Shown one piece after another: positions 227-24,503 of a stretch of DNA of 32,000 nt (position 1 is its first letter; every line of letters starts with the position of its first letter). Source of the stretch: an uncultured Gammaproteobacteria bacterium (GTDB lineage: Bacteria > Patescibacteriota > Microgenomatia > Daviesbacterales > UBA10151); the NCBI GenBank assembly GCA_964360965.1, contig CAYHYM010000002.1, positions 1 to 32,000 on the forward strand, written 5' to 3'. Under the pieces are notes generated by a model, which was given only the letters and a program-made list of their open reading frames with translations, had not been told where the DNA came from and searched no databases. Position numbers and translations under genes: made by a program.

Positions 227-266
227 CTTCGATTTCACTCAGTACAACCCTGAGCTTGTCGAAGGG
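227..266. repeat. GC-rich palindromic repeat, CCTGAGCTTGTCGAAGGG family (intergenic copy)
   Basis: CTTCGA(227-232)...CTCAG(238-242)...CTGAG(250-254)...TCGAAG(259-264) form a nested inverted repeat. The core CCCTGAGCTTGTCGAAGGG recurs at 7850-7896, 12728-12816 and 23801-23850. Confidence 0.75.
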
Positions 267-339
267 TTGATTCCCGCTGTGCCTACTTTTAAACTCATAC
301 TAAGGAGATTATATCAGAGAAAGAGGCTTACATTTTAAA

Positions 340-368
340 GTTGCTATTATTTTAGAAACCAGGTATAA
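340..368 (+). promoter_or_regulatory. sigma70-like promoter, TTGCTA-17-TATAAT
   Basis: TTGCTA at 340-345, a 17-nt spacer, then TATAAT at 363-368. Only 14 nt separate the -10 box from the ATG at 383 and there is no Shine-Dalgarno sequence, so the leader is very short. Confidence 0.4.
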
Positions 369-382
369 TAGCACTATTCCTT

Positions 383-673
383 ATGAATTTACCTCCTGCT
401 AAGCTACTGAGCAAAGAAGAACGAAAATTAGTTATCCTGAAAGCTCAGGAAGCCAGGGAAAAAATATTTAAACTGGTGGTCAAAATTATCAGCTGGCAAA
501 CCAGATCAATGGACAGTATTGCCATCAAACATGCAGATAAAGTAACCAATCATGAGTGGATAAGATATAAACAGCATCTTCTAAACATATCCAAATCAGA
601 AAGTACAGAAAGAGTAAGGGATAAATTAACCCAAACCTACAATGCCATAAAAGAGCATGGCGGCTTTAAATAG
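383..673 (+). CDS. hypothetical protein (96 aa)
   Basis: ORF track. It lies directly downstream of the predicted promoter and overlaps the next gene by 17 nt. No recognisable motif. Confidence 0.5.
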   Translation: MNLPPAKLLSKEERKLVILKAQEAREKIFKLVVKIISWQTRSMDSIAIKHADKVTNHEWIRYKQHLLNISKSESTERVRDKLTQTYNAIKEHGGFK

Positions 674-1532
674 AAAAAGAATTATTAAATTTTTGGGGCT
701 TATTTTATTCTCAGGGCTTATCATTTCTGTCATATCCGGCAGATTTACCAAAAATGAATCCATCAATATATCCAATCTTGATCCACTGGCGAATGCTGTT
801 CAAAATGCGCTGAAAGGAACAGAAGGAACATATGGAATTGTTATTAAAAATTTAAAAACAGGGGAAAGCTATGTTGCAAATGAGCATAAGGTGTTTGAGA
901 CAGGCAGCTTATATAAAATTTGGATTATGGCAACAGCTTTTGGCCAGATTCAAAATAACACATTAAAAGAGGATGAGCGCTTAAGCGAACAGGTAAATAT
1001 ATTAAATGATAAGTTCAACATTGCTTCTGAGGAAGCAGAAATGACAGAAGGAGAAATAACCCTGACTGTAAAGCAAGCTTTGGAACAAATGATCACCATT
1101 TCTCACAACTATGCTTCACTTCTTCTGATAGAAAGAATTAAACATTCCTCTGTTAAGGCATTTTTGACCCAAAATAGTTTTAATGAATCATCACTGGGAG
1201 AACCTCCTCATACAACTCCCTCTGATATAGCTTCTTTCTTTGAAAAATTATACAAGGGAGAACTTGCCAATAAGGAGTACACCAATAGGATGTTGAATCT
1301 GCTAAAAGAGCAAAAACTCAATGACAAATTGCCTAAATACTTATCAGGGGATACTGCCCTGTCCCATAAAACTGGTGAGATTGGTTTCTATACCCATGAT
1401 GCAGGCATTGTTTACTCACCAAACGGAGATTATTTGATTATAATTTTATCAGAAAGCGCCTCACCTGCCGCAGCCCAAGAACGGATAGCAACAGTTTCCA
1501 AAGCCGTTTATGATTATTTTATAAAATTATAA
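657..1532 (+). CDS. class A beta-lactamase-like serine hydrolase with N-terminal membrane anchor
   Basis: SxxK (SLYK), SxN (SHN) and KTG (HKTGEIG) motifs occur in class-A order and spacing. Hydrophobic N-terminus IIKFLGLILFSGLIISVI. Confidence 0.75.
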   Translation: MAALNRKRIIKFLGLILFSGLIISVISGRFTKNESINISNLDPLANAVQNALKGTEGTYGIVIKNLKTGESYVANEHKVFETGSLYKIWIMATAFGQIQNNTLKEDERLSEQVNILNDKFNIASEEAEMTEGEITLTVKQALEQMITISHNYASLLLIERIKHSSVKAFLTQNSFNESSLGEPPHTTPSDIASFFEKLYKGELANKEYTNRMLNLLKEQKLNDKLPKYLSGDTALSHKTGEIGFYTHDAGIVYSPNGDYLIIILSESASPAAAQERIATVSKAVYDYFIKL

Positions 1533-1541
1533 GTTGCTTGT

Positions 1542-2807
1542 TTACCTTCTTAAAATTTTTTCAAACCTGGTGGTATCTTTAAAAGGACCTATTATTTGTA
1601 AGTTTATTCTTTCAGAAACAAAAAGCTCCTGGGCCACTTCCTTGATATCATCTGCGCCAACCTCATCAATCTTTTTTAAATAATCATCAAATGATTCCAC
1701 TTGTCTGTCCAGGACATACTCCGTGCCAAAATATTCTGCCAAAAAATTGGTGGATTCCTGCCTGATGGCCAGTCTGCCTCTGATAATTTCCTTTCCCTTT
1801 TTTAACTCATCATCTGTTACTTTTTCGCTTGCCACTCTTTGCAGTTCTGCCACAATCACCTCCAAGCCCTCCTCAACTTTTTCCAGTTTAAGCCCTGCCG
1901 AACTTGCAAAAAAACCAGTATCCTTAAAGGTTTCATGCCCTGCATCTACATGATAAGCCAGTCCTCTTCTCTCTCTAACAGAGATAAAAAGTCTGGAAGA
2001 CATTCCCTCTCCCAAAATAGTAGCCAAAATTCTGGCAGCATATCTTTTGGAGTTGTAACGGTCGTATCCCTCCACCCCCAAAACTAAATGAACTTGGTCT
2101 GTTTTTTTATAAAAAATATTGACCCTTGGTTTAGTTTGTTTTTTCCTTTTATAGGGATTAAAAGAGTGGGAAGATCTTTTGGGTAGATTTTGGAAAAATT
2201 CCCCTGCCAGTTGTCTAATATTTTTAGGTAGCTTGCCGGCATATACCAGCACCATGTTTTGGGGAGAATAAAGATAGTCCATATAAGAAACAAAATCTGC
2301 TCTTTTTAAAGAATTGACAATTTTTTCTTCTCCTCCAATATCCCAACCCAGAGGTTGGTCTCCAAATTGTAATCTTTCATAGAGATCCCACACATAGCGG
2401 GTGGGGTTGTCTCTATACATCCGCAGTTCTTCTATAATTACTCCCTTCTCCCTGCCAATTTCCTCTTCAGCCAACAGTGATTCTTTGAGCATAGATGATA
2501 AAATATCTGATGCAAGTCCCACATGTTTGGCAGCGGATTTGACCCAATAGACAGTATACTCTTTAGCAGTTCCGGCATTATTGACTGATCCAATACCATC
2601 AAGTAAAGTGGCTATTATTTCAGCAGTCGGGAATTTTGTGGATCCTTTAAAAAACATGTGTTCTAAAAAATGGGAAATGCCGTTTATATTTTTGGTTTCA
2701 TATCTGGATCCGGCTCCTACACCTATTAGTGTGGTAACAGAATCAAGATGTGGTAGATCAACAGTTATTAGCGTTAATCCATTTTTTAAAGTAGTTAAAT
2801 TATGCAT
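1542..2807 (-). CDS. M16 family (pitrilysin-like) zinc peptidase
   Basis: HxxEH zinc motif (HFLEHMFFKG) with downstream glutamates (REKGVIIEE). Length is typical of a two-domain M16B protein. Its start overlaps the cysS stop by 13 nt. Confidence 0.85.
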   Translation of the reverse strand: MHNLTTLKNGLTLITVDLPHLDSVTTLIGVGAGSRYETKNINGISHFLEHMFFKGSTKFPTAEIIATLLDGIGSVNNAGTAKEYTVYWVKSAAKHVGLASDILSSMLKESLLAEEEIGREKGVIIEELRMYRDNPTRYVWDLYERLQFGDQPLGWDIGGEEKIVNSLKRADFVSYMDYLYSPQNMVLVYAGKLPKNIRQLAGEFFQNLPKRSSHSFNPYKRKKQTKPRVNIFYKKTDQVHLVLGVEGYDRYNSKRYAARILATILGEGMSSRLFISVRERRGLAYHVDAGHETFKDTGFFASSAGLKLEKVEEGLEVIVAELQRVASEKVTDDELKKGKEIIRGRLAIRQESTNFLAEYFGTEYVLDRQVESFDDYLKKIDEVGADDIKEVAQELFVSERINLQIIGPFKDTTRFEKILRR

Positions 2808-4141
2808 TTTTTAACTTTGGGTCCAGTTGGTGTATCTTCTATTTCAAAGCCCATTTTTTTAATTTTTTTCCTTATCTCATCTGATTTATTAAAATCTCCA
2901 GCTTGCCTGGCGTTTTCTCTTTTTCCCAATAAATCCCTAACCTCCTCAGGAACTTCTAGCGGTTTTCCCAAAATTTGATCCATTCCTAATCCCAAAATTT
3001 GATCCATTTTTAAAAGAGATTCTGCTTTGGCAGAGGTGGGATAACCAGATTTTACCATATCCCAAATGATAGCCAAAGCCTGGGGGGTATTTAAATCATT
3101 ATTAACAGCTTCCATAAATTTTTGTTCATATTCAGCACAGCCTACTTTTACCTCTTTCCATTCTCTTATAGTTTCTCTTAAATTGTTTAAGGCATTTTGG
3201 GCAGCCCCTAAAGATTCCCAGGTAAAATTTAATTTATCCCTATAATGAGCAGTTAAACAAAGGTAGCGAAAACTTAAAGGGTCAAAACCTTTATCTTCCA
3301 AATCCTGTAGTCTATAAAAATTCCCGGCAGATTTTGCCATTTTCTGTCCATCAACTAAAAGATGCTCTCCTTCCACAAAAAAGTTGACAAATTTTTTGCC
3401 TGTTTTACCTTCACTCTGGGCAATTTCATTTTCGTGGTGGGGAAAAAGTAAATCTATTCCACCAGCATGTATATCAAAGGATTGACCCAAATATTCCTGG
3501 CTCATGACCGAACACTCAATATGCCAGCCAGGCCTGCCTCTTCCCCAGGATGAGTCATAACCCACCTCATCTGGTTTTACTGATTTCCATAAAGCAAAAT
3601 CTTGGACATCATCTTTTGAGTATTCATCTGACAAAATTCTGGTGCCACTTTTTAGCTCCCTCTTTTCAACACCGGATAATTTTCCATAATCAGGAAACTT
3701 TGAAATATCAAAATAAATCGAGCCATCTTTTTCCATATAAGCCAAACCATTTTCAAGCAAAACCTCTATGTATTTGATCATATGTCCGATGTGTTCTGTA
3801 GCCTTTGGATAAACATTGGCAGATTTGATATTTAGTCTTGCCAAATCCTCAAAAAAAGCTTGTTCAAACGGCTTGGAAAATTCATTGATCCCCAGTCCCT
3901 TCTCCTTTGCCCCTTTGATAATCTTGTCTTCAATATCAGTAATGTTCATCACCCGATTTACAACATATTCATCAGTTTCCAAAACCCGTTTCAGGATATC
4001 CTCAAAAATAAAAGTCCGCAAATTGCCTATGTGGGCAAAATCATAAGTGGTAGGACCACAGGTATACAGACCCACTTTGGGTGGACTCAGGGGTTTAAAT
4101 TCTTCTATATTCCGAGTGAGAAAATTATAAAGTTTAAGCAC
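2795..4141 (-). CDS. cysS: cysteine--tRNA ligase
   Basis: Class I motifs HIGN (YDFAHIGNLRTF) and KMAKS. CysRS-type C-terminal tail (RENARQAGDFNKSDEIRKKIKKMGFEIEDT). The start codon read from the sequence is GTG at 4141. Confidence 0.93.
   Translation of the reverse strand: MLKLYNFLTRNIEEFKPLSPPKVGLYTCGPTTYDFAHIGNLRTFIFEDILKRVLETDEYVVNRVMNITDIEDKIIKGAKEKGLGINEFSKPFEQAFFEDLARLNIKSANVYPKATEHIGHMIKYIEVLLENGLAYMEKDGSIYFDISKFPDYGKLSGVEKRELKSGTRILSDEYSKDDVQDFALWKSVKPDEVGYDSSWGRGRPGWHIECSVMSQEYLGQSFDIHAGGIDLLFPHHENEIAQSEGKTGKKFVNFFVEGEHLLVDGQKMAKSAGNFYRLQDLEDKGFDPLSFRYLCLTAHYRDKLNFTWESLGAAQNALNNLRETIREWKEVKVGCAEYEQKFMEAVNNDLNTPQALAIIWDMVKSGYPTSAKAESLLKMDQILGLGMDQILGKPLEVPEEVRDLLGKRENARQAGDFNKSDEIRKKIKKMGFEIEDTPTGPKVKKCII
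2967..3008. repeat. 24-nt-period tandem duplication inside cysS
   Basis: CCCAAAATTTGATCCATT occurs at 2967-2984 and again at 2991-3008. It encodes the duplicated peptide MDQILG(LG)MDQILG. Confidence 0.85.
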
Positions 4142-4159
4142 AGCCTAAATTGTAAAGGT

Positions 4160-5401
4160 TTATGATGTGTTTTTAAAGAGGTTGTTTGCAAATTCTTTAG
4201 CCCAATCTTCAGCTTGTCTATCTGTCAGTGTAATACTGACAATGTGAGATGATGTCTCTTTAGCAACACATCCCTTATCTATTTTGCTAACTAATAGTCT
4301 AACCTCTTTTTCACTAGCCACTCCATGACTGGAAATTAGTGGTCCCACTTGAGTTTGGAATTCAGCCATATTAGGAATCTCCTCACCCATGGCTTTTTTA
4401 ATACAAATGCCTAAAAATGTATGAAAAGAATCTATATAAACTTGCCTTAAGTTACCTGGTGGTAATGTCCAGATACAGCTTTGAGGTAAAAAATCGCTTC
4501 TGAATCTTAGGTCAGCATCTCTAAAAAAAGCTGGTCTGTTAAAATTGGCAAAATTAATGGCTGCTACTCCCAAAAGTGCCGCCCCTTTATCCTCTGTGAT
4601 TAAAGGAAACTCCACAAAAGGAGATTGTCCTCCCATAAAATCCCATGCCATTGACCGTTCGATCTCGGCCCTCCTTTGAGTTTGAAAATGACCTCCCCCC
4701 CTGGTATCAACGGCCAAAATAGGAGCAACCTTATGTCCCAGAGCGGCAAAGGCTCCTGTGATATCTTGAGCTGCTCTACCAGAAATTACCGTATCTATCA
4801 ACACTATCTGACTATTTTGAACACCTTGATAATTTTTTAGCTCTGCCACAATTTCGCCGGGGCTCAATTTTTGATCATCATGAAGCTCTCTTTGCATCTT
4901 ACCCATCAAGAAATAATACCACCCAAGATCTTCCGGGTATTCCTTGCCTAAAGAGACCAGATCCAAAAATGCTCTGGCACAAGATTCGCGCAGTTTTCTG
5001 GCCAGCCATTCTTCTCCATTTTTCTCGTAAGATACATCAGCAGTAAAAGGGTAAAGTACCACATCTACCTGACTCTCGTCCGATTGATTATGTTGGATAA
5101 TTCTCCCATCTGATAAAAATTCAAATACTCTTTTGGGATAATAATTGGTCTGTGAAGGATCTACCAAGGGATGAACTTCATCAAGAGATTTTAGAGCCTG
5201 ATGAGCCAATAAAAAAATTGGTACTGCTCCACGGGAAGGAATCAAAACAACAGGTTTTTTCCCTGCTGAAATGATGTTTTCAGTAATGGTGTGAAACCTC
5301 ACGGCCACTTCTTCACAACCGGTGATATATTCACCAATAGACTGTTCTGACAATTCTGGTTCTCTAAATATAACTCCCTGTTCAGTTTTTATTTCACTCA
5401 T
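4160..5401 (-). CDS. hypothetical protein with phosphoribosyltransferase-like core (413 aa)
   Basis: VVLIPSRGAVPIF and SQIVLIDTVISGRAAQDI resemble the N-terminal strand-loop and the PRPP-binding loop of type I PRTases. About 110 aa are inserted between them, and a C-terminal region of about 190 aa has no motif I recognise. AGGTGG lies 6 nt upstream of the ATG. Confidence 0.5.
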   Translation of the reverse strand: MSEIKTEQGVIFREPELSEQSIGEYITGCEEVAVRFHTITENIISAGKKPVVLIPSRGAVPIFLLAHQALKSLDEVHPLVDPSQTNYYPKRVFEFLSDGRIIQHNQSDESQVDVVLYPFTADVSYEKNGEEWLARKLRESCARAFLDLVSLGKEYPEDLGWYYFLMGKMQRELHDDQKLSPGEIVAELKNYQGVQNSQIVLIDTVISGRAAQDITGAFAALGHKVAPILAVDTRGGGHFQTQRRAEIERSMAWDFMGGQSPFVEFPLITEDKGAALLGVAAINFANFNRPAFFRDADLRFRSDFLPQSCIWTLPPGNLRQVYIDSFHTFLGICIKKAMGEEIPNMAEFQTQVGPLISSHGVASEKEVRLLVSKIDKGCVAKETSSHIVSITLTDRQAEDWAKEFANNLFKNTS

Positions 5402-5403
5402 AG

Positions 5404-5814
5404 TTAGCCACCTACACCCCTGCCCATTTTTCGCTCAGCTAAGGTTCTGGCCCGAACTTCTTCCGGAAGAGGCTGTTTTTTCTTTTGTACCTCAAGCTGT
5501 TTGACCTGTTTCTTCTCTTGTTCTTGCTTGTCCCGAGCAATGTCAAGGGATTGCTGTTTTTCCCTGACTTTTCTTTGAGCCTCATCCAAATTTTTCCACC
5601 AGGCAATTTTTCTTCTGACCTCGGCCAATCCTTTCTGTTCCTGCTGCTGTTTTAAAAAGCTCTGCCTGGGGGTAAGTTTTGGTTGTGGCGGACCGGAGAA
5701 AACAGTCTGCGCTCCGATCTCAATGGCTTTACCCAGCTCATCAGCTGCAGGTTTTATTACAGCTTCCCCAATATCTTGCGGCAGTTGTCTAATAAATCCT
5801 TTGGAGTTTGGCAT
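5404..5814 (-). CDS. hypothetical K/Q/E-rich low-complexity protein ending in Gly-Gly (136 aa)
   Basis: ORF track. Sits 2 nt from both neighbouring genes. Long charged, probably helical or disordered segment (QQQEQK...QEQEKKQVKQLEVQKKKQ). C-terminus is ...AERKMGRGVGG followed by the stop. Confidence 0.65.
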   Translation of the reverse strand: MPNSKGFIRQLPQDIGEAVIKPAADELGKAIEIGAQTVFSGPPQPKLTPRQSFLKQQQEQKGLAEVRRKIAWWKNLDEAQRKVREKQQSLDIARDKQEQEKKQVKQLEVQKKKQPLPEEVRARTLAERKMGRGVGG

Positions 5815-5816
5815 AT

Positions 5817-7121
5817 TTAATTCTTTAACCCTTCCAGCAGTCCGGTAAATTTTTTGATATTTTCTGCTGAATTCTCAATTGGTCCCTGAATGGTTAAATT
5901 CAGTTTACTAAAATCCCAATATTTTTTCATAAAATTCATAATATCTTTCTTACTTACTCTTTCTATCATCTTAGCATATTCATCAGGTGTGTAAATTTTA
6001 TCTTCCCATAATAGATCACCCTCAATCCAACTGGCAATATTACCTGGATGATCAAACTGCATTAGTATTTGATTAACAGTATAATTTTTGGCAAAATTTA
6101 ATTCTTCCTCTGTAGGACCATTTTCCAAAAAAGAAGTTAGTTCTTTTATGATCAGCTCCATCACTTCCTCTACCTTGTCAGGTGCTGTTTGGGTGGAGAT
6201 ATAAACATAGGCAAAATGTTCATAGGTAGTTGCTCCCATATCCACTCCATAAACTAAACCTCGCTGCAACCTTAATAATCTATACAACCTGCTTACCCTA
6301 AGTCTCCCTAAAATACTTCTGGCTATAGACTGAGGAACTTGCTTGAGGATTCCTTCAGAATCAGGGATGGTGGAAAAGCTTAAATCAATATAACAAGTAT
6401 TTAAAGTTCTATCCTCTCTAATAGCCACCCGTCTTCCTGTTAAATCCTTGTTAGTCAATTTGGGAAATCCGGGAAAAGTTTTACCAGGGAGATATTTGCT
6501 AAAAAACTTGTCTATTAACTCTTCAATAATACTGGTATCAAATCCCCCCACCACTACCAGATAGGTATTTTTAGGGTGAAAAAAAATAGACCAAAAATTA
6601 ACTAGATCTTTTTTCTGTAATTTTTTAATTATCTCTTCTGATCCACCACTATCAAGTAAGAAAGGATGCCCTTTTTTATATCTTACTGATGAGAAAAATC
6701 TGCCTCTTTTATACCAATCAGTACCCTGTCTTTGCCAAATTTCCTCCAGGATTGCCCCTCTTTCTTTTTCTATTCCTGTCTCTGGGAAAAGGGGCTTAAA
6801 AAACACTTCGTGTGAAACTTTTAACATATCCTCTAAATGATTTGCCGGACCATTAATATAAAACCTGATCATCTGCGGAGCAGTCATGGCATTAAAACTA
6901 CCTGCCAAACCCTCAATAAAGTTATAGATAGCTTCACTACTGCCAAAAGTAGGGGTACCTTCTATTAAAATATGCTCCATGAAATGAGCCAAGCCTGAAG
7001 TTTTAGGGGTATCAAAAATTGAACCACCCTTAACAGACTCACTGATAAAAACAGACTTCATCTGTGGAATTGAATAAGTGGCAACTTTTAATCCATTTTT
7101 TAAAGTAAAAGTTTTTAACAT
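5817..7121 (-). CDS. M16 family zinc peptidase
   Basis: HFMEHILIEG (HxxEH) plus EKERGAILEE. Directly abuts the recR stop codon. Confidence 0.85.
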   Translation of the reverse strand: MLKTFTLKNGLKVATYSIPQMKSVFISESVKGGSIFDTPKTSGLAHFMEHILIEGTPTFGSSEAIYNFIEGLAGSFNAMTAPQMIRFYINGPANHLEDMLKVSHEVFFKPLFPETGIEKERGAILEEIWQRQGTDWYKRGRFFSSVRYKKGHPFLLDSGGSEEIIKKLQKKDLVNFWSIFFHPKNTYLVVVGGFDTSIIEELIDKFFSKYLPGKTFPGFPKLTNKDLTGRRVAIREDRTLNTCYIDLSFSTIPDSEGILKQVPQSIARSILGRLRVSRLYRLLRLQRGLVYGVDMGATTYEHFAYVYISTQTAPDKVEEVMELIIKELTSFLENGPTEEELNFAKNYTVNQILMQFDHPGNIASWIEGDLLWEDKIYTPDEYAKMIERVSKKDIMNFMKKYWDFSKLNLTIQGPIENSAENIKKFTGLLEGLKN

Positions 7122-7734: not shown

Positions 7735-8058
7735 TCACATCCCGGGGATGCCTAAACCGCCCATCATGGGTTTCATCTCTTCAGCTGCTACTTTTTGGGA
7801 TTGTTTTAAAGCCTCATTAACTGCTTCTGTCACTTTTTGCGGATCCACTAGCCCTGAGCTAGCTTGCCCTGAGCCTGTCGAAGGGGTCGAAGGGTCTCCG
7901 GAAATTGACTGCACTTTTTGATCTGCTGTCATCACCACAGTTACCCCCCGATGTTCCACAGTAATTTTGATCATGGCCAATTTTTTTTGCATTTCCATGG
8001 CCTGATTCCGCATTTTTTTTAAATCACCCAACTGCTTTAAATTATCAAAAATTCCCAT
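7735..8058 (-). CDS. ybaB: YbaB/EbfC family nucleoid-associated protein carrying a repeat-derived insertion
   Basis: Size, the N-terminal MQKKLAMIKITVEHRGVTVVMTADQKV and the C-terminal VTEAVNEALKQSQ fit YbaB. Sits in the conserved position next to recR. Confidence 0.85.
   Translation of the reverse strand: MGIFDNLKQLGDLKKMRNQAMEMQKKLAMIKITVEHRGVTVVMTADQKVQSISGDPSTPSTGSGQASSGLVDPQKVTEAVNEALKQSQKVAAEEMKPMMGGLGIPGM
7850..7896. repeat. GC-rich repeat (CCTGAGC/GTCGAAGGG family) inserted in-frame in ybaB
   Basis: CCCTGAGC occurs twice (7852-7859, 7867-7874). GTCGAAGGG is tandemly duplicated (7877-7885, 7886-7894). Translated on the minus strand as GDPSTPSTGSGQASSGL. Confidence 0.8.
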
Positions 8059-8814: not shown

Positions 8815-10371
8815 CTAATCTATCAGTTTTCCTTCAAAGATTTCAGAGGCTACTCTAATTACTTCATCATCAGCAGCCACCTCCACATTGGCCACATCTT
8901 CCAATTTTTGAGGCCTGGCGCCCAAAACTGTGGACACCTTAATAGATTTTCCCAAAACATCTGAAAAGACTGATTCCAAAAGATCCCTGGACTTTGGCGC
9001 CTCCAATATTCTTTGATGAAAAGAATAGGGAACTTCCAAAATTACCATACCATCAGAGGCATCACTAACTTTAACTGAACGAAGCAGAGCCTCCAAAGAA
9101 AAATTAAAAGGACGGATGGTTTCTAAAACAAAACTCCATTTTTCTTTAAGCTTTAGGATATCAGGGGAATCAGAATTTGACGGTGGATGATTTATTTTTA
9201 CTTCGTCATTCTGGAGGGATGTACCATCTCGGTACGTCCCGATAGAATCTTCCATAGATGCTATCGGTCGCTTCGCTCCCTCCAGCATGACAGAGGATTC
9301 GTTTTCGCATATTTCCACCACTGCCAGCTCCAGCGGCAGAGCAGGAATTGAGGCAAACTTCATTTTTTCCAAAGCTTGCTGTAAGGTATTCAAAGCGCCA
9401 GCCAAATAGTTGATGCTTAATTTATCTGCCAGATTGTCAAGCAGTTGGTATTGATCTTTTGGATACTCGAGCTCAACCAAACTTTCCCCCAGATCATGTT
9501 TGATAAGCAGGAGTTTTCGCAAGATATTAAGCATCTCCAAATTAAGCTGCCTTGCATCTACTCCCACCTCTAGTTGTCTGGTAATCTCCAATATGGCAGC
9601 TTTAACATCATTTGAGGCTATTTTCTCAACTGTGCTAAATGCCTCTTCAAACCTGACTACTTGTAAAACCCCTACCACTAAAGCTGCCGTAATTTTGCCC
9701 TCCATGCTTGATGCCTGATCTAACAGTTTTACTCCATCTCTAAAACTGCCATCTGAGGCTCTGGCCAGAATTTGTAAGGCCTCATCATCTATATCAATTT
9801 TTTCATCTTTGGCCACTTTTTGTAAAAGCGATAAAAGCTCCGGAACAGTGGCCAGTTTAAAATCCAGCCTTTGCACTCGGGATAAAATTGTGGCCGGTAT
9901 TTTTTCTCCTTGAGTGGTGGCCAAAATAAAAAGGGCGTGAGTAGGGGGTTCTTCCAGAGTTTTTAAAAGGGCATTTAAAGCCTCTTGAGTTAACATATGC
10001 ACCTCATCAATGATGTAAACTTTTCTTTTGGCGCTGCTTGGTAAAAGTTTTACATTTTCCCGCAAGGCCCTGATATCATCTATTCCCCTGTTGGAAGCAG
10101 CATCAATTTCTATCAGGTCCAGATTAGATCCATCTGTAATAGATGAACAAGTAGAACATTTATTACAAGGAACATTCTGCTTTGCAGAACAATTTACCAT
10201 TTTGGCCAAAATTCGGGCTGTTGATGTTTTACCGCTGCCGCGAGGTCCTACCAAAAGATAGGCATGGGAAAGTTTTCCAGTCAAATATGCTGACTTTAGG
10301 TTTTTTTTAACATGATCCTGACCAGCCAGAGCATCAAGAGTTTGCGGGCGGTATTTTAAATAAAGTGTCAT
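8815..10371 (-). CDS. dnaX: DNA polymerase III subunit gamma/tau
   Basis: Walker A GPRGSGKTS, zinc module CNKCSTCSS, Walker B IIDEVHML and sensor segment ILSRVQRL. Its start overlaps the ybeY stop by 4 nt. Confidence 0.92.
   Translation of the reverse strand: MTLYLKYRPQTLDALAGQDHVKKNLKSAYLTGKLSHAYLLVGPRGSGKTSTARILAKMVNCSAKQNVPCNKCSTCSSITDGSNLDLIEIDAASNRGIDDIRALRENVKLLPSSAKRKVYIIDEVHMLTQEALNALLKTLEEPPTHALFILATTQGEKIPATILSRVQRLDFKLATVPELLSLLQKVAKDEKIDIDDEALQILARASDGSFRDGVKLLDQASSMEGKITAALVVGVLQVVRFEEAFSTVEKIASNDVKAAILEITRQLEVGVDARQLNLEMLNILRKLLLIKHDLGESLVELEYPKDQYQLLDNLADKLSINYLAGALNTLQQALEKMKFASIPALPLELAVVEICENESSVMLEGAKRPIASMEDSIGTYRDGTSLQNDEVKINHPPSNSDSPDILKLKEKWSFVLETIRPFNFSLEALLRSVKVSDASDGMVILEVPYSFHQRILEAPKSRDLLESVFSDVLGKSIKVSTVLGARPQKLEDVANVEVAADDEVIRVASEIFEGKLID
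9206..9292. repeat. inverted pair of GTCATKCTGGAG-family elements inserted in-frame in dnaX
   Basis: Termini GTCATTCTGGAGGGA (9206-9220) and TCCCTCCAGCATGAC (9278-9292) are complementary at 14 of 15 positions. Internal hairpins are GTACC-N5-GGTAC (9222-9236) and CGATAG-N15-CTATCG (9241-9267). Each arm resembles the intergenic copy at 24477-24503. Confidence 0.85.
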
Positions 10372-10757: not shown

Positions 10758-10765
10758 ATTCCTTT

Positions 10766-10790
10766 GTCATTCCGGACTTGATCCGGAATC
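10766..10790. repeat. palindromic repeat hairpin (GTCATTCCGGA...TCCGGAATC)
   Basis: ATTCCGGA (10769-10776) pairs with TCCGGAAT (10782-10789) around the loop CTTGA. The GTCATTC...GAATC ends are shared with the copies at 23716-23740 and 24477-24503. Confidence 0.8.
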
Positions 10791-10809
10791 TATATAATTA
10801 TTTGTATGG

Positions 10810-10844
10810 ATCCTGAATCAAGTTCAGGATGACACTAGGGTGTC
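10810..10844. repeat. palindromic repeat: 8-bp hairpin followed by a GACAC/GTGTC hairpin
   Basis: ATCCTGAA (10810-10817) pairs with TTCAGGAT (10823-10830) around the loop TCAAG. GACAC-TAGG-GTGTC follows at 10831-10844. TTCAGGATGACACT.GGTGTCA recurs at 12590-12611. Confidence 0.8.
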
Positions 10845-11278
10845 AGCTTGCCCCTAACTATCCCACTTACAACATTCCCGTCAGCTTGACCTTTAACCTT
10901 CCCCATCACCTTTCCCCTCACCTTCCCCATATCCTGCAAAGAAGTAGCTCCTATTTCATTTATAGCCTGTTGGACTATATTAGTCAATTCCTCAGTTGAA
11001 AGTTGAGCTGGCAGATATCCTTCTAAAATTTTTAGCTCTTGTTCTTCCTTTAAAGCTTGCTCCTCTCTACCTCCAGACCTAAAACCAGAAGCTGCTTCAG
11101 ATCTCCTCTTAGTCTCTTTTTGAATAATAGAAATCACATCCTGATCAGATAATTCCTGTCCTTTGGCAATCTGGACATTATGGATTTCAGATAAAAGCAA
11201 CCGCAAGGTGGATATTTTTACTTCCTCACGATCAAACTGCGCCTGTTTTAAATCTTCTTGTATTGTAATCAGTAACAT
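10835..11278 (-). CDS. GatB/YqeY domain-containing protein
   Basis: Typical YqeY pattern: IQEDLKQAQ...STLRLLLSEI...QKETKRRSEAASGFRSGGREEQALKEEQELKILEGYLP...DMGKV. The last codons and the stop lie inside the repeat at 10831-10844. Confidence 0.85.
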   Translation of the reverse strand: MLLITIQEDLKQAQFDREEVKISTLRLLLSEIHNVQIAKGQELSDQDVISIIQKETKRRSEAASGFRSGGREEQALKEEQELKILEGYLPAQLSTEELTNIVQQAINEIGATSLQDMGKVRGKVMGKVKGQADGNVVSGIVRGKLTP

Positions 11279-12611: not shown

Positions 12612-12635
12612 ATTTAACAGAAATCATCTTTAAAA

Positions 12636-13952
12636 TCAATTAGACTTAATAATATCAATCAATTGTTTTAAATCTTTAAAGTTCGTTTCCTTTTCTGATC
12701 TTTTTTTAACCTCTAATTTATCTTTGGCTCGCCCTGAGTTTACCTGCAGTGAGCCACTCGGTCCTGAGCTCGTGGCCGAAGGGCTTGTCGAACCTGCCGA
12801 ATGGGCCGAATGGGTCTTTTTAGAAATAACCACTCTGTAGGGAATTCCAATTAAATCAGCATCGGCAAATTTTTCTCCGGCAGATACATCTACTCTGTCA
12901 TCAAACAAAACCTCAATTCCTTCAACTTGCAGTAATTTATAAACCTTTTCCGCCTCCCTCATTACAGATTCTTGATCCAAATCCAATCCCACCAAATGAA
13001 CCTGATATGGAGCTACAGACTCCGGCCAAATAATGCCTTTTTCATCATTAAATACTTCCACAATTGCTCCCATGGTTCTTGATATCCCCAAACCATAACA
13101 GCCTGCGGAGACCAGCTTCTCTTTGCCATCCCGATCAACAAAAGTTAATTTAAAAGTTTTGGCAAACGACTCCTTTAAGGGGAAAATATTACCAACCTCA
13201 ATAGACCTTTCCAGCGTTAAATTCCCTCCACATTGAACACATTTTTTATCTTCTGCAATTTCTGCATTTGTGGCAGTTTTACAACTCTCACAGACAAAAA
13301 CAGTATCTTCTCCTGAAGGAGTCAGGGTTTGAAATTCCAAAGACAGGTTTGAAAAAGTACCTCCACCTGCTTTAGTCTCCACAACTGGTAGAGTCAATCT
13401 TTGAAAAATTTTCAGATAAGCCTTCCTGACAATTTGGTAATACTCATCCCTATCGCTATCATCTGTATGAAAACTGTACAGATCCTTCATCAAAAATTCT
13501 CTTCCACGAAGTAATCCTGCTTTAGCCCTTGGCTCATTTCTAAATTTGGTTTGAACCTGATAAAGACACAAAGGTAAGTCTCTGTAAGATTTTGCGTATT
13601 CTTTTACCAGAGGATAAATTATCTCTTCGTGGGTTGGTCCCAAAACCAAATCAGAGCCACCTCCTTTTAATTTAAAAAGTACATCAAAAGAGGAAAACCT
13701 GCCTGTTTTTTTCCAAGCATCAGCAGGGTGTAAGGCTGGCATAACCAACTCATGTGCCCCAATATCATTCATTTCCTCTCTGACTATATCAGAAATCTTA
13801 TCTAAAACTCTCCAACCTAAGGGTAAATAGGTATAAACTCCAGCCATCTCCTGATGGATAAAGCCAGCTCGAGTTAGTAACTGATGATTGATGGACTCAG
13901 CCCCTGAGGGGGCTTGCTTTAAAGTTTTCGGGAAAAGTTTTGAGTATTTCAT
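12636..13952 (-). CDS. proS: proline--tRNA ligase (bacterial type, no INS editing domain) carrying a repeat-derived insertion near the C-terminus
   Basis: Bacterial ProRS N-terminus (SINHQLLTRAGFIHQEMAGVYTYLPLG), class II motif 2 (FRNEPRAKAGLLRGREF), Cys-rich segment CESC...CVQCGG and motif 3 (GCYGLGISR). ATGA overlap with the upstream gene. Confidence 0.9.
   Translation of the reverse strand: MKYSKLFPKTLKQAPSGAESINHQLLTRAGFIHQEMAGVYTYLPLGWRVLDKISDIVREEMNDIGAHELVMPALHPADAWKKTGRFSSFDVLFKLKGGGSDLVLGPTHEEIIYPLVKEYAKSYRDLPLCLYQVQTKFRNEPRAKAGLLRGREFLMKDLYSFHTDDSDRDEYYQIVRKAYLKIFQRLTLPVVETKAGGGTFSNLSLEFQTLTPSGEDTVFVCESCKTATNAEIAEDKKCVQCGGNLTLERSIEVGNIFPLKESFAKTFKLTFVDRDGKEKLVSAGCYGLGISRTMGAIVEVFNDEKGIIWPESVAPYQVHLVGLDLDQESVMREAEKVYKLLQVEGIEVLFDDRVDVSAGEKFADADLIGIPYRVVISKKTHSAHSAGSTSPSATSSGPSGSLQVNSGRAKDKLEVKKRSEKETNFKDLKQLIDIIKSN
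12728..12816. repeat. GC-rich repeat (CCTGAGC/GTCGAA/CCGAATGGG family) inserted in-frame in proS
   Basis: Contains CCCTGAG, CCTGAGCTCGTGGCCGAAGGGCTTGTCGAACC and tandem CCGAATGGG (12797-12805, 12806-12814). Translated as HSAHSAGSTSPSATSSGPSGSLQVNSGRA. Confidence 0.8.
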
Positions 13953-14683
13953 CTTACACGTCTTCCCTCACGTTCGAAATCTCCACTTCCATCATTTTTA
14001 TCCTCTTTATTCCTCTCTTTTTGAACCTCTCTTTGTTCTTTTTTATCAGAATGTTCTTTCTCCTTTTTTGACTTTTCTTTTTCCTCTTTTATCTTCTTTT
14101 CTATCTCTTCTATTTTCTTACGAGCTTCATCAATCTCTTTAGCATCAACTCCTCCTTGAGGAGGTTTAGAAGGGGTTACAGGTTGAGCTGACGGAGTGGG
14201 TCTTTGGGTAGGAACTGGAGTCGCAACCAATGTAGCAGATGGTTCTGGTGGAGAAACAACTTCAGTAATGGGCGGGGTTGTAATTTGGTTTGAAGCCTGT
14301 TCTAATCCCTGATCATATTTTTTTATAGAATCCAAAAGTTGATCTGTTAATTGCTCTTTCCTTACAGGATCTTCCACTTTTGCTAACTCATTTGCTGCTA
14401 TGTCTGTTTGGGAAACCAGCTCATTTAAAGTTTTAGAAGCAGATTTACCTTGAGCTATTAATGTAGAAAATTCTTTAAATCTTCTGTCAGATCTGGCTGC
14501 GGAAAACCAGGCGCGGGTTATGGGGTTCAAAGATGCAACTGCATATATTCCATCCTCCAAAATCCTTTTAATTGGGTAAGTCGCATCACCAGGCACGGCA
14601 TTATTGGAAATTAAAGCCAAACTGGATGGTGGAAATAATACTATGGCCAAAATTAGAGTGGCAGTAGAGATAATCTTAACCAT
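13949..14683 (-). CDS. membrane-anchored DUF5667-like protein with Pro-rich and Lys/Glu-rich tail
   Basis: N-terminal TM helix, then VPGDATYPIKRILEDG, which resembles the PGD..YP.KR start of DUF5667. A proline-rich linker and a KE-rich C-terminus follow. I prefer the ATG at 14683, 4 nt after the rseP stop, over the ORF-track start at 14722. Confidence 0.6.
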   Translation of the reverse strand: MVKIISTATLILAIVLFPPSSLALISNNAVPGDATYPIKRILEDGIYAVASLNPITRAWFSAARSDRRFKEFSTLIAQGKSASKTLNELVSQTDIAANELAKVEDPVRKEQLTDQLLDSIKKYDQGLEQASNQITTPPITEVVSPPEPSATLVATPVPTQRPTPSAQPVTPSKPPQGGVDAKEIDEARKKIEEIEKKIKEEKEKSKKEKEHSDKKEQREVQKERNKEDKNDGSGDFEREGRRVR

Positions 14684-16381: not shown

Positions 16382-16394
16382 AAATTAACTTAAT

Positions 16395-16449
16395 ACTAAA
16401 GACTGAATACTTAAAACTTTTTATTTTTTAGTCTTTAGTTTTCAGTCTT
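16395..16449. repeat. AT-rich inverted/direct repeat cluster in the tsf-frr spacer
   Basis: ACTAAAGACT (16395-16404) is the reverse complement of AGTCTTTAGT (16430-16439). AAGACTGAA (16399-16407) is the reverse complement of TTCAGTCTT (16441-16449). The two pairings are mutually exclusive. Confidence 0.7.
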
Positions 16450-17966: not shown

Positions 17967-19688
17967 TCAGCTTCTATCAAAGAATTCTACTTTTGAGGCA
18001 GGGTCAGGACGTTGATCTAACTTAATACCAGAAAGATAGAGATCAGAGTTAGCAATTAGCTGATTGGCTTCATATGCTAATGCCCGATAGTTGATATGTC
18101 CACCAGGTCTATATCTTAAGTCAGTAAAATAGAGAGCCTGTTTAGGATTACCATGCATATAAAAATCAACCATTTGGCCAAGTGGCATCACGTTGGCTAC
18201 AAAGCTAAAGTCTGCTTTATCTCCATATTCAGTTTGTACTTTATCCATTAAACTATATACTCCCTCATAATACCTCTCCATGTCAGTAGTAAAATCTTCT
18301 GCCTGCTCTTCAAACTGATCAACAGCCACTAAATATAATGGCAAACCAAAGCCTTTACAGAGTACCTGTTCTGCTTTCTGTCTACCCCAGGCTTCACCAT
18401 AAAGCAGTGGCATAGGCATAAATCTACCCCAGGCTCTTTGTCTGTTAAAATCTCTTTGCACTCCTAAATCAGCAAACACTTGTAAGGTTATATCAGTAAC
18501 AGCAGCCATATAGGAAGGCTCTCGGTACTTATCATGACCATTAAAAATAATTTGACTAATGCGACGTTTAGTTTCATCACTTCTGGTGGACAACCAGCCG
18601 TTGACTACCTCAGCTGGAAGAGCTGGCCAGAGAGTTTGTACGTACTGCATAGCTACCCTTTCCCCCAAACTTATTTGACCCGGTAACAAATTGATTACCT
18701 GCTCTTTTCTTTGAGGAAAACTACCATAGGCTTTAGCAACTCTGAGCAAATCTTCTTTACCCCCAATAAATGTTTTTAACTGCCTTAAGTTTTCATTAAC
18801 TGTATTATCTGCTTCGGTATGTCTAATTAAACTGGGTGATTCAGCTTTAAAGATAAGTAATTTTTCAGTCTCTGCATCAGGAGCCAAAAAGGCTTCTAGT
18901 TGATTAGCATATCTCCTGTAAAAGGGCACATGTGAAGCCTGAAGTAGAGAAATTATTCTAGACCAGTCTCTAGAGGAGGTCTCGTAAGAAAAACCAGTGC
19001 CCTGGCCAAACAGCAAAAAGTATCTGGCAGAGTCCAGTACCCGAGAGTTCAGTGCTCCTTTTTGACTGGCATCTGGCTGATAAAATTCTTCATAGGCAGA
19101 AGTTAACTTTTCCCTGTGTTTAGCAAATAACTCTAATGAGAGTCCTCCCAATCCTTGATATTCTTCTTCAATCTCTGGGTTCATTTCATCTATAGGTAAA
19201 TAGTTACTCAGTGGATGAAGTACTGCTCTTCTAAAAGAGGGCTGGTAACGGGTGGATTTTTCCTGACCAGAGATGATGTAACCTTCATGAAACATAGTAA
19301 AAGCTAGGTGCATGGGGGTTAAGTGATGGTCTACCTGAATTCTGGCCATATCTCCTACCGACTTATGTCCATATCCAGCAAACATATCATCAATCTTTTG
19401 ATCAGGATCCACTCCTTTTTCACCCATTTCATGATAAATGTCCCAAGGAGTTCCCGGGGCTCTGGATTGCCTGGCTCCACCCCAAGCTTTATGGGCAGCC
19501 GTTCTTTTTTCAGGATTAGCTAGAGGGGAAGTTACTACAACTCCACTCTGTAGATCTTCCATACAGATCATATCCAATCCTGTCTGATCAGCTGAATACC
19601 TAAACCAGCGATAACCATTATGAGTTAATTCTTTAATTGGTAATAATTCTTGCTGCTCAGACATGTATTCCTCGTATTCCTTTGGCAA
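17967..19688 (-). CDS. ThyX-like flavin-dependent thymidylate synthase homologue, internally duplicated (573 aa)
   Basis: There are two ThyX-like units. Unit 1 has YGHKSVGDMARIQV...MFHEGYIISGQEKSTRY and ...LDSARYFLLFGQGT...SSRDWSRII. Unit 2 has NGHDKY...ITLQVFADLGVQRDFNRQRAW and ...NPKQALYFTDLRYRPGGHINYRALAYEAN. The canonical RHR-x7-S-x-RY signature is split between them: unit 1 keeps SxRY and unit 2 keeps RxR. An alternative ATG exists at 19664. Confidence 0.6.
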   Translation of the reverse strand: MPKEYEEYMSEQQELLPIKELTHNGYRWFRYSADQTGLDMICMEDLQSGVVVTSPLANPEKRTAAHKAWGGARQSRAPGTPWDIYHEMGEKGVDPDQKIDDMFAGYGHKSVGDMARIQVDHHLTPMHLAFTMFHEGYIISGQEKSTRYQPSFRRAVLHPLSNYLPIDEMNPEIEEEYQGLGGLSLELFAKHREKLTSAYEEFYQPDASQKGALNSRVLDSARYFLLFGQGTGFSYETSSRDWSRIISLLQASHVPFYRRYANQLEAFLAPDAETEKLLIFKAESPSLIRHTEADNTVNENLRQLKTFIGGKEDLLRVAKAYGSFPQRKEQVINLLPGQISLGERVAMQYVQTLWPALPAEVVNGWLSTRSDETKRRISQIIFNGHDKYREPSYMAAVTDITLQVFADLGVQRDFNRQRAWGRFMPMPLLYGEAWGRQKAEQVLCKGFGLPLYLVAVDQFEEQAEDFTTDMERYYEGVYSLMDKVQTEYGDKADFSFVANVMPLGQMVDFYMHGNPKQALYFTDLRYRPGGHINYRALAYEANQLIANSDLYLSGIKLDQRPDPASKVEFFDRS

Positions 19689-21544: not shown

Positions 21545-21576
21545 AAATTTTGGGGAGATTTTTAGGGGCCCCCTTT

Positions 21577-21605: not shown

Positions 21606-21639
21606 GGAGTAACAACCATCTACACACCTTGGATGTGTG

Positions 21640-23700: not shown

Positions 23701-23715
23701 AAAATACTCCTTATT

Positions 23716-23755
23716 GTCATTCTGAGTGTAACGAAGAATCTCTTGCGAATGCAAG
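23716..23755. repeat. GTCATTCTGAG...GAAGAATC family repeat plus a CTTGC/GCAAG hairpin
   Basis: GTCATTCTGAGTGTAACGAAGAATC at 23716-23740 resembles 24477-24503. CTTGC-GAAT-GCAAG lies at 23742-23755. Confidence 0.8.
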
Positions 23756-23778
23756 TACTATTGTAGTGATGTTGTCAA

Positions 23779-23797
23779 GGGTCGCCGAAGGCGACCC
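23779..23797. repeat. GC-rich perfect hairpin, 8-bp stem and 3-nt loop
   Basis: GGGTCGCC-GAA-GGCGACCC. It is not followed by a T-run on the minus strand, so it is not a canonical intrinsic terminator. Confidence 0.8.
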
Positions 23798-23800
23798 GCA

Positions 23801-23850
23801 GACCCTGAGCACTGAGCTTGTCGAAGTGTCGAATGGGTCAATAGTTCGAC
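23801..23850. repeat. CCTGAGC/CTTGTCGAAG/GTCGAATGGG family repeat (intergenic copy)
   Basis: GACCCTGAGCACTGAGCTTGTCGAAGTGTCGAATGGGTC...TTCGACTACGCTCACT. It shares modules with 227-266, 7850-7896 and 12728-12816. Confidence 0.8.
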
Positions 23851-23858
23851 TACGCTCA

Positions 23859-24098
23859 CTATTCAAAATCAGAATCCAAAATTTGTGGGTTAACCTTTTC
23901 CAACTCCACCTTTAGATCAGTAGAAGAATTAAATTTAAATTCCTTTTTAATTGGAGTTGGAGATGGAACTGGAGTCTGAACTGTCCCGGAGAAGGGACTT
24001 ATCATTTTTTTACCTTCCCACCCTTGGGGTGCAAACTTAAAAATTGTTATAACTGTTATAACAATTAAAATTATTATAAAAATTACCTTTTTATTCAT
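23859..24098 (-). CDS. small membrane-anchored hypothetical protein (79 aa)
   Basis: N-terminal TM helix VIFIIILIVITVITIF followed by a Pro-rich linker. Overlaps the upstream gene by 8 nt. Confidence 0.5.
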   Translation of the reverse strand: MNKKVIFIIILIVITVITIFKFAPQGWEGKKMISPFSGTVQTPVPSPTPIKKEFKFNSSTDLKVELEKVNPQILDSDFE

Positions 24099-24453
24099 TT
24101 AAAGCCTTTCCTGCCTCTTTTTTAGCCCTTAATACCTTGCCTTTTAAAACCTCCAGACTGGAACGTAACCCGGCTTTTGAAGAAAATTCTTGAGCTCTCT
24201 GATATGCAATTGCCTCTGCAGCATACGTTATCCAATAATCAGCTGATTTTATGGGTGTATCCACTCCCCCAAAAGCCACTCTAGTTTCTGTAATTCCCTT
24301 TCTATCTCTCAACTGCTCCATAATAGCAGCAAGCCTTGAAACATCTTCTTCAAATCTATTACAAACTTTTTGATTTATCTGATCAGTGGCTGGCGCTGCC
24401 AAAACAGTAATGGGGGTGATAAACAGTATACACAACAAAACCAACCACTTCAT
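24091..24453 (-). CDS. secreted hypothetical protein (120 aa)
   Basis: Signal-peptide-like N-terminus MKWLVLLCILFITPITVLAAPA. The remainder looks helical. Confidence 0.55.
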   Translation of the reverse strand: MKWLVLLCILFITPITVLAAPATDQINQKVCNRFEEDVSRLAAIMEQLRDRKGITETRVAFGGVDTPIKSADYWITYAAEAIAYQRAQEFSSKAGLRSSLEVLKGKVLRAKKEAGKALNE

Positions 24454-24476
24454 TATATTTAATAATACACTAAAAA

Positions 24477-24503
24477 GTCATTCTGGAGCGAAGCAATAGA
24501 ATC
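24477..24503. repeat. GTCATTCTGGAG...ATAGAATC family repeat (intergenic copy)
   Basis: GTCATTCTGGAGCGAAGCAATAGAATC closely matches each arm of the dnaX insertion (9206-9292) and the copy at 23716-23740. Confidence 0.8.

Follow-up and report, generated by a model that had tools for sequence, protein, structure and literature searches.

The window analysed here, that is, the whole stretch of 32,000 nucleotides formed by positions 1 to 32,000 of contig CAYHYM010000002.1 (assembly GCA_964360965.1; 40% GC), contains about 10 loci with short palindromic units, which are interpreted below as repetitive extragenic palindromic (REP) sequences of the type tagged with CGTC or TGTC. The minus strand is occupied by a long housekeeping array, recognized by profile and domain calls on the open reading frames (ORFs) and comprising cysS, recR, ybaB, a purN-like gene, dnaX, ybeY, yqeY, rpsU, tig and proS, together with rseP, frr, tsf, rpsB, a thyX-like gene, tmk, dcd, topA, a clpB-like gene, dprA and pbp2. 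The nearest homologues of the encoded ProS and YbaB are ~74-90% identical, and those with names are from Candidatus Daviesbacteria (Microgenomates), a member of the Candidate Phyla Radiation (CPR). The same genes, identical in sequence, are present on short contigs in three replicate assemblies of the Hainich groundwater 0.1-µm metagenome, which rules out that the features are an artefact of one assembly; the double unit inside ybaB is likewise identical across three independent assemblies. Copy counts for the source organism refer to this 32-kb window. Outside it, units were compared at 178 unit-bearing loci and at loci of Daviesbacteria relatives, designated by locus numbers; L001, L183 and L184 belong to such relatives, and L001 is syntenic with the window.

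An earlier note on this DNA had listed at least two families of palindromes, A and B, and a related motif, TTCAGGATGAC, and had compared them with REP sequences or bacterial interspersed mosaic elements (BIMEs), Rickettsia palindromic elements (RPEs) or miniature inverted-repeat transposable elements. All the listed motifs are present, at the positions given or a few bases away, and the comparison named the correct type of element: the units agree with the superfamily of CGTC/TGTC-tagged REPs. They follow one plan, with an unpaired GTC head, a stem opening with AT, a centre, the complementary stem and a C tail. The centre is either GAGC-GNA-GCGA, in which a tandem G.A step is combined with a GCGNAGC mini-hairpin, or the 5-nt loop CTTGA. 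An AT...AT stem start is found in all six B units of the window, and GTC is preceded by C in one of them (9205), by T in four (9291 on the minus strand, 10766, 10833 on the minus strand, and 23716) and by A in one (24477); of 470 harvested units, 367 have T and 58 have C at this position. Perfect 8-bp stems with the CTTGA loop are restricted to the units at 10766-10790 and 10809-10833. The other four B units have five Watson-Crick pairs followed by the G.A step, and reach nine stacked pairs only when the sheared G.A pairs are counted; centres outside the two CTTGA units are 11-31 nt long. Family A copies have no GTC-AT head.

Two of the B loci are inverted dimers with their heads outward. The first, at 9205-9291, is inside dnaX and consists of a plus-strand unit (9205-9249, GTCATTCTGGAGGGA...GATAGAATC) and a minus-strand unit (9257-9291, GTCATGCTGGAGGGAGCGAAGCGACCGATAGCATC); it falls in the linker between domain III and the C-terminal domain, where Pfam domains stop at residue 356 and restart at 407. 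The second, at 10766-10845, fills the ybeY-yqeY spacer. Its plus-strand unit (10766-10790, GTC-ATTCCGGA-CTTGA-TCCGGAAT-C), which reads CHSGLDPES in translation, and its minus-strand unit (10809-10833, GTC-ATCCTGAA-CTTGA-TTCAGGAT-C) have a common frame and loop and differing complementary 8-bp stems, and the pair (10766-10833) ends 8 nt 5' of the ybeY ATG. A small hairpin, TGACAC-TAGG-GTGTCA (10831-10845), overlaps both the second head and the stop codon of yqeY; the sequence TTCAGGATGACAC at 10823-10845, previously listed as a separate unit, turns out to be the head end of the complete inverted unit at 10809-10833. In the tig-proS spacer, a truncated or degenerate head on the minus strand (12590-12611, GTCATCCTGAAAA...) is preceded by the same small head hairpin, here TGACAC-CAAG-GTGTCA. 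Single B units are found on the plus strand at 23716-23740 (GTC-ATTCT-GAGTGTAACGA-AGAAT-C), antisense to topA and ~15 nt upstream of its ATG (~23700), and at 24477-24503 (GTC-ATTCT-GGAGCGAAGCAAT-AGAAT-C), the latter being intergenic and followed, up to 24530, by degenerate repeats resembling right arms, TCGAGGGGATCGAGAGGTCGGAAT. The unit near topA gives the mechanical ORF a spurious N-terminal extension, ILRYTQNDN, and the Toprim domain begins at residue 22 of that extended ORF. In the minus-strand reading, the complemented unit heads, (A/T)TGAC(A/T), also provide -35-like hexamers (23715-23720, 24476-24481, 12607-12612 and 10765-10770), each separated by 17-18 nt from a weak -10-like box, in front of topA, a 120-aa ORF, tig and ybeY; this arrangement is probably coincidental.

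Family A comprises a single plus-strand unit at 245-269 (AACCCT-GAGCTTGTCGA-AGGGTT, with an exact 17-mer core), located between a partial ORF (1-159), to which it lies 3', and an ORF at 383-673, to which it lies 5', and several larger copies, also on the plus strand. The double unit at 7851-7896 lies antisense within ybaB (7735-8058, minus); its left arm, CCCTGAGC, and its right arm, TCGAAGGG, each occur twice, and in-frame translation yields PSTPSTGSGQASSG. Antisense within proS (12636-13952, minus), a multi-arm cluster at 12731-12816 contains CCTGAG three times and repeats of CCGAAGGG/GTCGAA/CCGAATGGG; it adds 29 aa in frame, HSAHSAGSTSPSATSSGPSGSLQVNSGRA, to the anticodon-binding domain. 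The 165-nt spacer upstream of topA carries, at 23773-23839, a TGTC-headed 8-bp hairpin (GGGTCGCC-GAA-GGCGACCC, 23779-23797) and a double A unit (23801-23839, GACCC-TGAGC-A-CTGAGC-TTG-TCGAAG-TG-TCGAAT-GGGTC). A further A-core-like 17-mer with two mismatches, CTGAGCCTGCCGAAGGG (28579-28595, minus), new to the earlier list and of uncertain membership, lies in sense orientation inside dprA.

Since the copies at 7851-7896, 9205-9291 and 12731-12816 are within the reading frames of ybaB, dnaX and proS, the intergenic placement formerly proposed does not hold for them. The related proposal that nearly every longer spacer is occupied needs correction, as only five of the nine truly non-coding spacers of at least 60 nt carry a unit. 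What looks like a spacer of 193 nt between tig and yqeY is in fact rpsU (ribosomal protein S21; 11279-11471, minus). Its frame in the window has no ATG, GTG or TTG start, opening with ...ATC ATA GTA AAA..., and this non-standard start explains why the gene was missed by the mechanical ORF listing; a PF01165 gene occupies the same position in relatives.

Chimeric and nested copies connect A with B, and for this reason A, B and the TTCAGGATGAC motif, itself the reverse complement of the head GTCATCCTGAA, are best read from their sequences as one superfamily, the CGTC/TGTC-tagged REPs, in place of two or more families. In L001, canonical units on both sides of ybaB (GTCATCCTGAGCGAAGCGAAGGATC and GTCATCCTGAGCGAAGTCGAAGGATC, of the form GTCATCCTGAGCGAAG(T)CGAAGGATC) combine the B frame, GTCAT...ATC, with the A core, CCTGAGC...CGAAGG. 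L184 has an A unit nested within a B unit (14138-14190), L047 has the A centre GAGCTTGTCGA set in a B frame, and the arrangement GTCATCCTGA[CCCTGAACGAAGTGAAGGG]GAAGGATC is found in both L008 and L037. Identical DNA words occur in spacers and in gene inserts. At the A loci of the window both arms are duplicated symmetrically, as in ybaB, where CCCTGAGC twice is followed by TCGAAGGG twice, and this is the pattern that would be expected if one unit had inserted in the loop of another.

The motifs are strongly enriched. GTCATTCYG occurs four times in the window against 0.31 expected, a 13-fold excess, and none of 100 dinucleotide shuffles reaches four; the family A 17-mer CTGAGCTTGTCGAAGGG, allowing up to three mismatches, occurs four times (the fourth being the copy in dprA) against 0.04 expected from dinucleotide shuffles, an excess of 100-fold. 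A looser scan for GTCAT hairpins, with 9 observed against 4.3 expected, has a high background and was replaced by these specific counts. That background, and the abundance of 24-nt GC-rich islands in the coding parts of the window, lend something to the idea of coincidence, in which low-complexity linkers in genes and chance GC-rich hairpins between genes would have been mistaken for a family; it is hardly credible in view of the specific enrichment, the covariation of the stems, the sharing of words between spacers and inserts, and the presence of identical units in unrelated genomes. The units had also been characterized as GC-rich islands. Family B units are not, because their GC content is ~40-48% against 40% for the window, and the frequency of 24-nt islands found in coding DNA by a GC-island scan makes such islands non-diagnostic.

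Drawn as ATCCT / GA / GC-GAA-GC / GA / AGGAT, the commonest unit would have a stem of five Watson-Crick pairs, then a tandem G.A/A.G step, and GCGNAGC at its centre. The most frequent centre is GCGAAGC (207 units), followed by GCGCAGC (13), GCGGAGC (9) and GCGTAGC (2), all of which are exact GCGNAGC motifs. This sequence is the d(GCGNAGC) 'mini-hairpin DNA' of Hirao and co-workers, with two G-C pairs and a sheared G-A pair; its melting temperature of 76.5 °C is that of the mini-hairpin and not of the whole 25-nt unit, and it has been described as a structural motif at priming and transcription origins (PMC13037366), unlike the dispersed repeat family seen here. Compensatory stem changes, which the earlier note had suggested as a check, are present. 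When the harvesting pattern leaves one pair free (Y...R), the combinations found are T..A 118, C..G 85, T..G 1 and C..A 0 times. Over 45 distinct 25-mers, 96.2% of cells are paired, five of seven pairs have changes on both sides, and cells changed on both sides number 41 against 10.1 in shuffles (0/500), all slid controls collapsing; in these figures four paired columns are fixed by the harvesting pattern and the cells are not independent events. Wobble pairs make up only 5 of 315 cells, so the palindrome appears to be read on both DNA strands and not as a one-strand RNA helix. Neighbouring units no more than 120 nt apart are preferentially arranged heads outward (84 pairs, as are both window dimers), with 15 pairs heads inward and 20 in tandem, and the gaps are mostly 12-45 nt.

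Folding of the copies as DNA gives a mixed picture. The claim that all of them form hairpins is borne out by the dimers and by the cluster at 23770-23850, with strong folds for dnaX (-24.1 kcal/mol, z = -6.55), for 10766-10833 (z = -4.63) and for 23773-23839 (-17.5 kcal/mol, z = -3.47), and modest ones for the unit at 245-269 (-5.9 kcal/mol, z = -2.5) and the hairpin at 12590-12611 (z = -2.9). It does not extend to the ybaB copy, the proS cluster, in which no significant fold is left, and several single B units, which are no different from shuffles; for these single and intragenic copies the null result is conservative, because nearest-neighbour rules give no credit to G.A pairs. A possible role as RNA elements was considered as well, in which selection for expression would keep the hairpins as attenuators, processing sites, or stabilisers of the 5' or 3' ends of mRNA. 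Some copies are right beside gene ends or Shine-Dalgarno sites, for example 23716-23740 near the topA ATG and 10766-10833 near that of ybeY, and published REPs of this type are mostly transcribed and near 3' ends (PMC3733652). However, units occur in both gene orientations and inside ORFs, no terminator-like match overlaps any of them, no T-run accompanies them, and orthologous spacers of relatives are without units; Rfam and tRNA scans of the window found nothing. Together with the scarcity of G-U wobble, these properties point to a DNA-level palindrome, and an RNA function as the reason for the repeats is unlikely. The suggestion that they serve as stabilisers or processing sites between cistrons has thus gained no positive evidence. 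Intrinsic terminators are ruled out, as there is no T-run context and the overall number of terminator-like sites is that of shuffled sequence.

Copies in essential genes can be compared codon by codon with relatives. Most ProS homologues (408-411 aa) read VVISKKT-GDKLEVKKR at the point where the window protein has 29 additional residues; a subset carries 7-16 aa at this same codon (HSASSGQA, HSISFDTTQDRRSGQA, PSTGSGQ and others), and at a second site four homologues have VADPERSRR, the sense reading of GTCGCAGATCCTGAGCGTAGTCGAAGG. A neighbour-joining tree of ProS, built after masking of the inserts, has filled alleles scattered among empty ones, a patchiness that, on these sequences, could result either from repeated insertion at a hot spot or from one old insertion with repeated precise losses. 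At one codon YbaB has three states: empty (92 aa), with a single unit (98-99 aa, G(D)PST..SGQ), and with a double unit (102-107 aa), and the DNA of the inserts matches unit arms. The linkers of DnaX and Tig are hypervariable among relatives and contain recognizable units, e.g. VIARNEVTKQS in the DnaX linker of L183, and rarA of L184 holds a dimer. In AlphaFold models, whose moderate quality is due to shallow alignments, the insert of ProS (residues 383-409) is a low-confidence coil between conserved secondary-structure elements and the YbaB insert (~55-72) a low-confidence coil between strand 49-54 and helix 73-100; the inserts are thus placed by the models in loops. Within genes the palindrome decays and a peptide rich in Ser, Gly, Pro and Thr stays. 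A general test for units in ORFs of at least 100 aa at all loci (54 of 204) is unreliable in GC-rich genomes and was not used.

The units are by no means confined to CPR bacteria. Exact matches to the pattern GTCATYCTGAGCGAAGCGAAGRATC were found in 58 IMG/VR contigs and, among GTDB species representatives, in at least 120 stretches, from more than 15 phyla with GC contents of 30-75%. The hosts include Acidobacteriota, Nitrospirota, Nitrospinota, Chloroflexota, Gemmatimonadota, Bacteroidota, Firmicutes, Verrucomicrobiota, Planctomycetota, Cyanobacteria, Ignavibacteria, Bdellovibrionales, Omnitrophica, several Proteobacteria (Helicobacter marmotae among them), Gracilibacteria, Saccharimonadales and other Patescibacteria. 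Unit-bearing viral contigs, from uncultivated phages, encode capsid, portal and terminase proteins, and plasmids of cultured Gloeothece, Planktothrix, Nostoc, Hymenobacter, Phocaeicola and Granulicella also carry the unit; the GenBank phage collection gave no real match. Such a distribution suggests horizontal spread. It is also an argument for a host-selected DNA signal, such as gyrase, IHF or nucleoid-protein sites, as in BIMEs, or a priming signal based on the mini-hairpin: the same 25-mer, nearly unchanged at 30-75% GC and in phages, would fit recognition by conserved machinery, GCGNAGC mini-hairpins are found at the priming origins of phage G4 and ssiA (PMC13037366), and heads show a strand bias (~19 units antisense and 7 sense to co-directional genes, in a hand tally of the window and Daviesbacteria relatives). 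On the other hand, presence or absence differs among close relatives at orthologous sites, coding-region copies decay, density varies from ~0.1 to 0.45 per kb across related genomes (our own count of listed units over locus length; four relatives have 2-9 units per 20 kb), no regular spacing was seen, and no conserved neighbour gene emerged at the 178 loci. We regard a selected signal as quite improbable and the units as probably neutral towards the host; RNA-level and host structural roles are possible as secondary uses, though nothing here supports them.

Several unit-rich contigs were encountered in this survey. A group of related uncultivated phage contigs (L004, L008, L009, L014, L018, L025 and other IMG/VR sequences) shares genes for a major capsid protein, an SPP1-type portal and an adaptor, and carries several units each, for example 9 units in 13.7 kb in L025 and 10 in 5.4 kb in L024. 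Locus L148, from H. marmotae MIT 98-6070 (NZ_NXLR01000033.1), has 8 GTCAT-type units in 5.9 kb (1.36 per kb), and this unexpected cultured host could serve as an experimental system.

Elements that behave in a similar way have been described in other bacteria. Ogata and co-workers reportedly found, in 2000 and 2002, palindromic elements inserted in frame in housekeeping genes of Rickettsia, a bacterium with a small genome; RPE-1 is said to be 100-150 bp long and Rickettsia-specific, and expression of decorated proteins has reportedly been shown in Rickettsia. The units described here are likewise inserted in frame, encode short peptides at tolerated positions and vary in presence between relatives. 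They differ in being ~25 nt long or multiples of this, in clusters of at most 90 nt, in having stem and centre sequences other than those of VIPAKAGI-type units, and in that the decorated proteins are known from genes alone; the likeness to RPE-1 is one of behaviour and not of sequence membership. The REP and REPIN sequences paired with REP-associated tyrosine transposases (RAYTs), described by Bertels and Rainey (2011), Nunvar (2010) and Ton-Hoang (2012), are GTAG-tagged and form lineage-specific, vertically inherited pairs with the enzyme. Both kinds are short hairpins that bear an unpaired tag on the 5' side, form inverted doublets, reach a high copy number and presumably move by a mechanism involving single-stranded DNA. 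In contrast, the tag here is GTC or TGTC, there is no GTAG-tagged family in the window, no RAYT gene is flanked by these units in the window or in the relatives' loci searched, and near-identical units recur in different phyla and on phage contigs.

The closest correspondence is with the CGTC-tagged REPs of Di Nocera, De Gregorio & Rocco (2013; PMC3733652). According to that paper, these have a CGTC head, often replaced by TGTC (CCTC is accepted), stems of 8-9 bp that almost invariably open with complementary A/T, loops of 4-5 nt (other lengths in some species) and short tails; one dimer type dominates and there is no dedicated transposase. Their hosts are Proteobacteria, Chlorobi, Bacteroidetes, Spirochaetes and Thermotogae, and the superfamily (CGTC-1 to CGTC-4) includes Rickettsia RPE-4 (CGTC-4) and RPE-6 (CGTC-1) and Neisseria dRS3. 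In-frame copies are frequent in tRNA-synthetase genes and genes of DNA replication or repair, and RHPGLDPGS, VIPGLDPGI and VIPAKAGI are among the REP-encoded peptides tabulated (PMC3733652). Set against this description, the B units of the window agree in their (T/C)GTC heads, AT stem start and C-initial tail, in the 8-bp stem and 5-nt CTTGA loop of the units at 10766 and 10809, in the preference for one inverted dimer type (leaving aside its correspondence to the 'HH' type of the paper), in the lack of a flanking transposase, and in the in-frame copies in proS, ybaB and dnaX (in relatives, tig, dnaX, proS and rarA); CHSGLDPES is close to the published RHPGLDPGS and VIPGLDPGI. Points of difference are the CPR (Patescibacteria) host, the 5-bp outer stem and 11-31 nt centre (tandem G.A with GCGNAGC, or nested arms) of most copies, and the headless state of family A. 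The B units thus fit the superfamily as a whole, with no distinction among CGTC-1 to CGTC-4, and the units centred on tandem G.A/GCGNAGC and the headless A units are variants, likewise taken at the level of the superfamily.

Taken together, these data argue that the loci are copies of CGTC/TGTC-tagged REPs acting as selfish, non-autonomous hairpin elements, a reading to which we give a probability of roughly 0.8. Such elements would spread, or have spread in the past, through a hairpin stage in single-stranded DNA, mobilized by a factor that is probably supplied in trans and encoded outside the window. Units would typically land as heads-outward inverted dimers, and their arms may be duplicated symmetrically by nested insertion into a unit's own loop. 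Survival would be confined to harmless positions, namely short spacers beside genes or, where the insert is in frame and free of stops, loops and linkers of proteins; an intragenic palindrome would afterwards decay and leave its Ser/Gly/Pro/Thr-rich peptide.

Some observations weigh against this explanation. The absence of a transposase from the window, already remarked in the earlier note, is confirmed in that no ORF has a transposase or Y1_Tnp domain, and an IS200-like tnpA was detected near only 1 of the 178 unit loci by phmmer with an approximate TnpA query and a RAYT-like protein from L184. The gene for the latter is flanked by a different palindrome. The patchy states at single codons are compatible with one old insertion and repeated precise losses. 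In addition, A cores occur in conserved parts of genes, namely the 17-mer with two mismatches in dprA of the window (ALSLPKGR) and an exact core in tsf of L001 (5748-5764, EF-Ts, ALSLSKGD). Compared with the usual DprA and EF-Ts sequences, though no alignment of homologues was made, there is no evident change of length at these cores, which makes the membership of the dprA copy uncertain and hints at patch-like replacement instead of simple insertion.

The search for a mobilizing enzyme was extended to all neighbours of the units. Clustering of 3,073 ORFs from the 178 loci found no enzyme family enriched beside them, the enriched domains being only those of phage structural proteins (capsid, portal, terminase) and two-component systems. 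The RAYT-like Y1 transposase of L184 (19416-20191, 235 aa) has the HUH motif NHFHFL and YIHRNP, and scores 42 bits, below the cutoff, with NCBIfam REP_Tyr_transpos. A perfect palindrome with a 15-bp stem, TCTAGCCTCGCCAGA-GGTCG-TCTGGCGAGGCTAGA, lies just 5' of the gene, with a copy inside its own ORF, and by its sequence is a REP type distinct from the GTC-headed units. A more speculative and rather doubtful view is that CGTC/TGTC hairpins are not relics of lost transposons, and spread by a transposase-independent process of replication or repair common to bacteria and phages. A hairpin might serve as the template for copying, templates might be switched, or patches might be transferred at microhomologies such as GAAGG in a manner like gene conversion. 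Such a process would account for the lack of a dedicated enzyme since 2013, for a near-identical 25-mer in more than 15 phyla and in phages, for symmetric arm growth, and for cores in tsf and dprA without length change. If it were true, the machinery would be sought most profitably in minimal CPR genomes of ~1 Mb, and the elements would be a steady supply of new linkers in essential proteins.

Elements of this kind are already described; what is new is the CPR host group, the breadth of one subtype, and the series of empty, single and double alleles in essential genes. A literature search found no paper linking these repeats or RPEs with CPR bacteria, and searches with raw sequence and peptide strings returned unrelated primer matches only. 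The host range of a poorly understood repeat superfamily is thereby widened to the CPR, with one subtype nearly unchanged in more than 15 phyla and in uncultivated phages. Even in a genome of ~1 Mb, the repeats reshape ProS, YbaB, DnaX and Tig through in-frame loops. For annotation, the units account for spurious N-terminal extensions and for recurring ORF peptides such as ILRYTQNDN and CHSGLDPES. They also offer a small-genome setting for finding what copies CGTC-type REPs, a question that is sharpened here and not solved.

Other features of the window are separate from the units. The thyX-like ORF (17967-19688, minus) encodes an unusually long protein of 573 aa, with a Thy1 domain only at residues 98-253 and large regions without annotation. 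The frr-tsf spacer (16388-16446) is filled by an AT-rich inverted repeat of 29 nt, 79% complementary with a 1-nt gap, which is unrelated to the GC-containing units. A direct repeat of 34 nt, 94% identical between its copies at 29104-29137 and 29622-29655, reads GTTCTCGACCGAGAATATAATGAAGAG on the gene (minus) strand, where the inverted repeat TTCTCG-AC-CGAGAA and a TATAAT box overlap. One of the copies is directly 5' of a 160-aa PaaX_M/Cas2-like gene, with a TTGACA -35 element and an ATG 6 nt past the box, so placed that this gene is possibly leaderless; the second copy is upstream of dprA. The repeat is thus a candidate shared operator or promoter that would tie the PaaX-like regulator to dprA.

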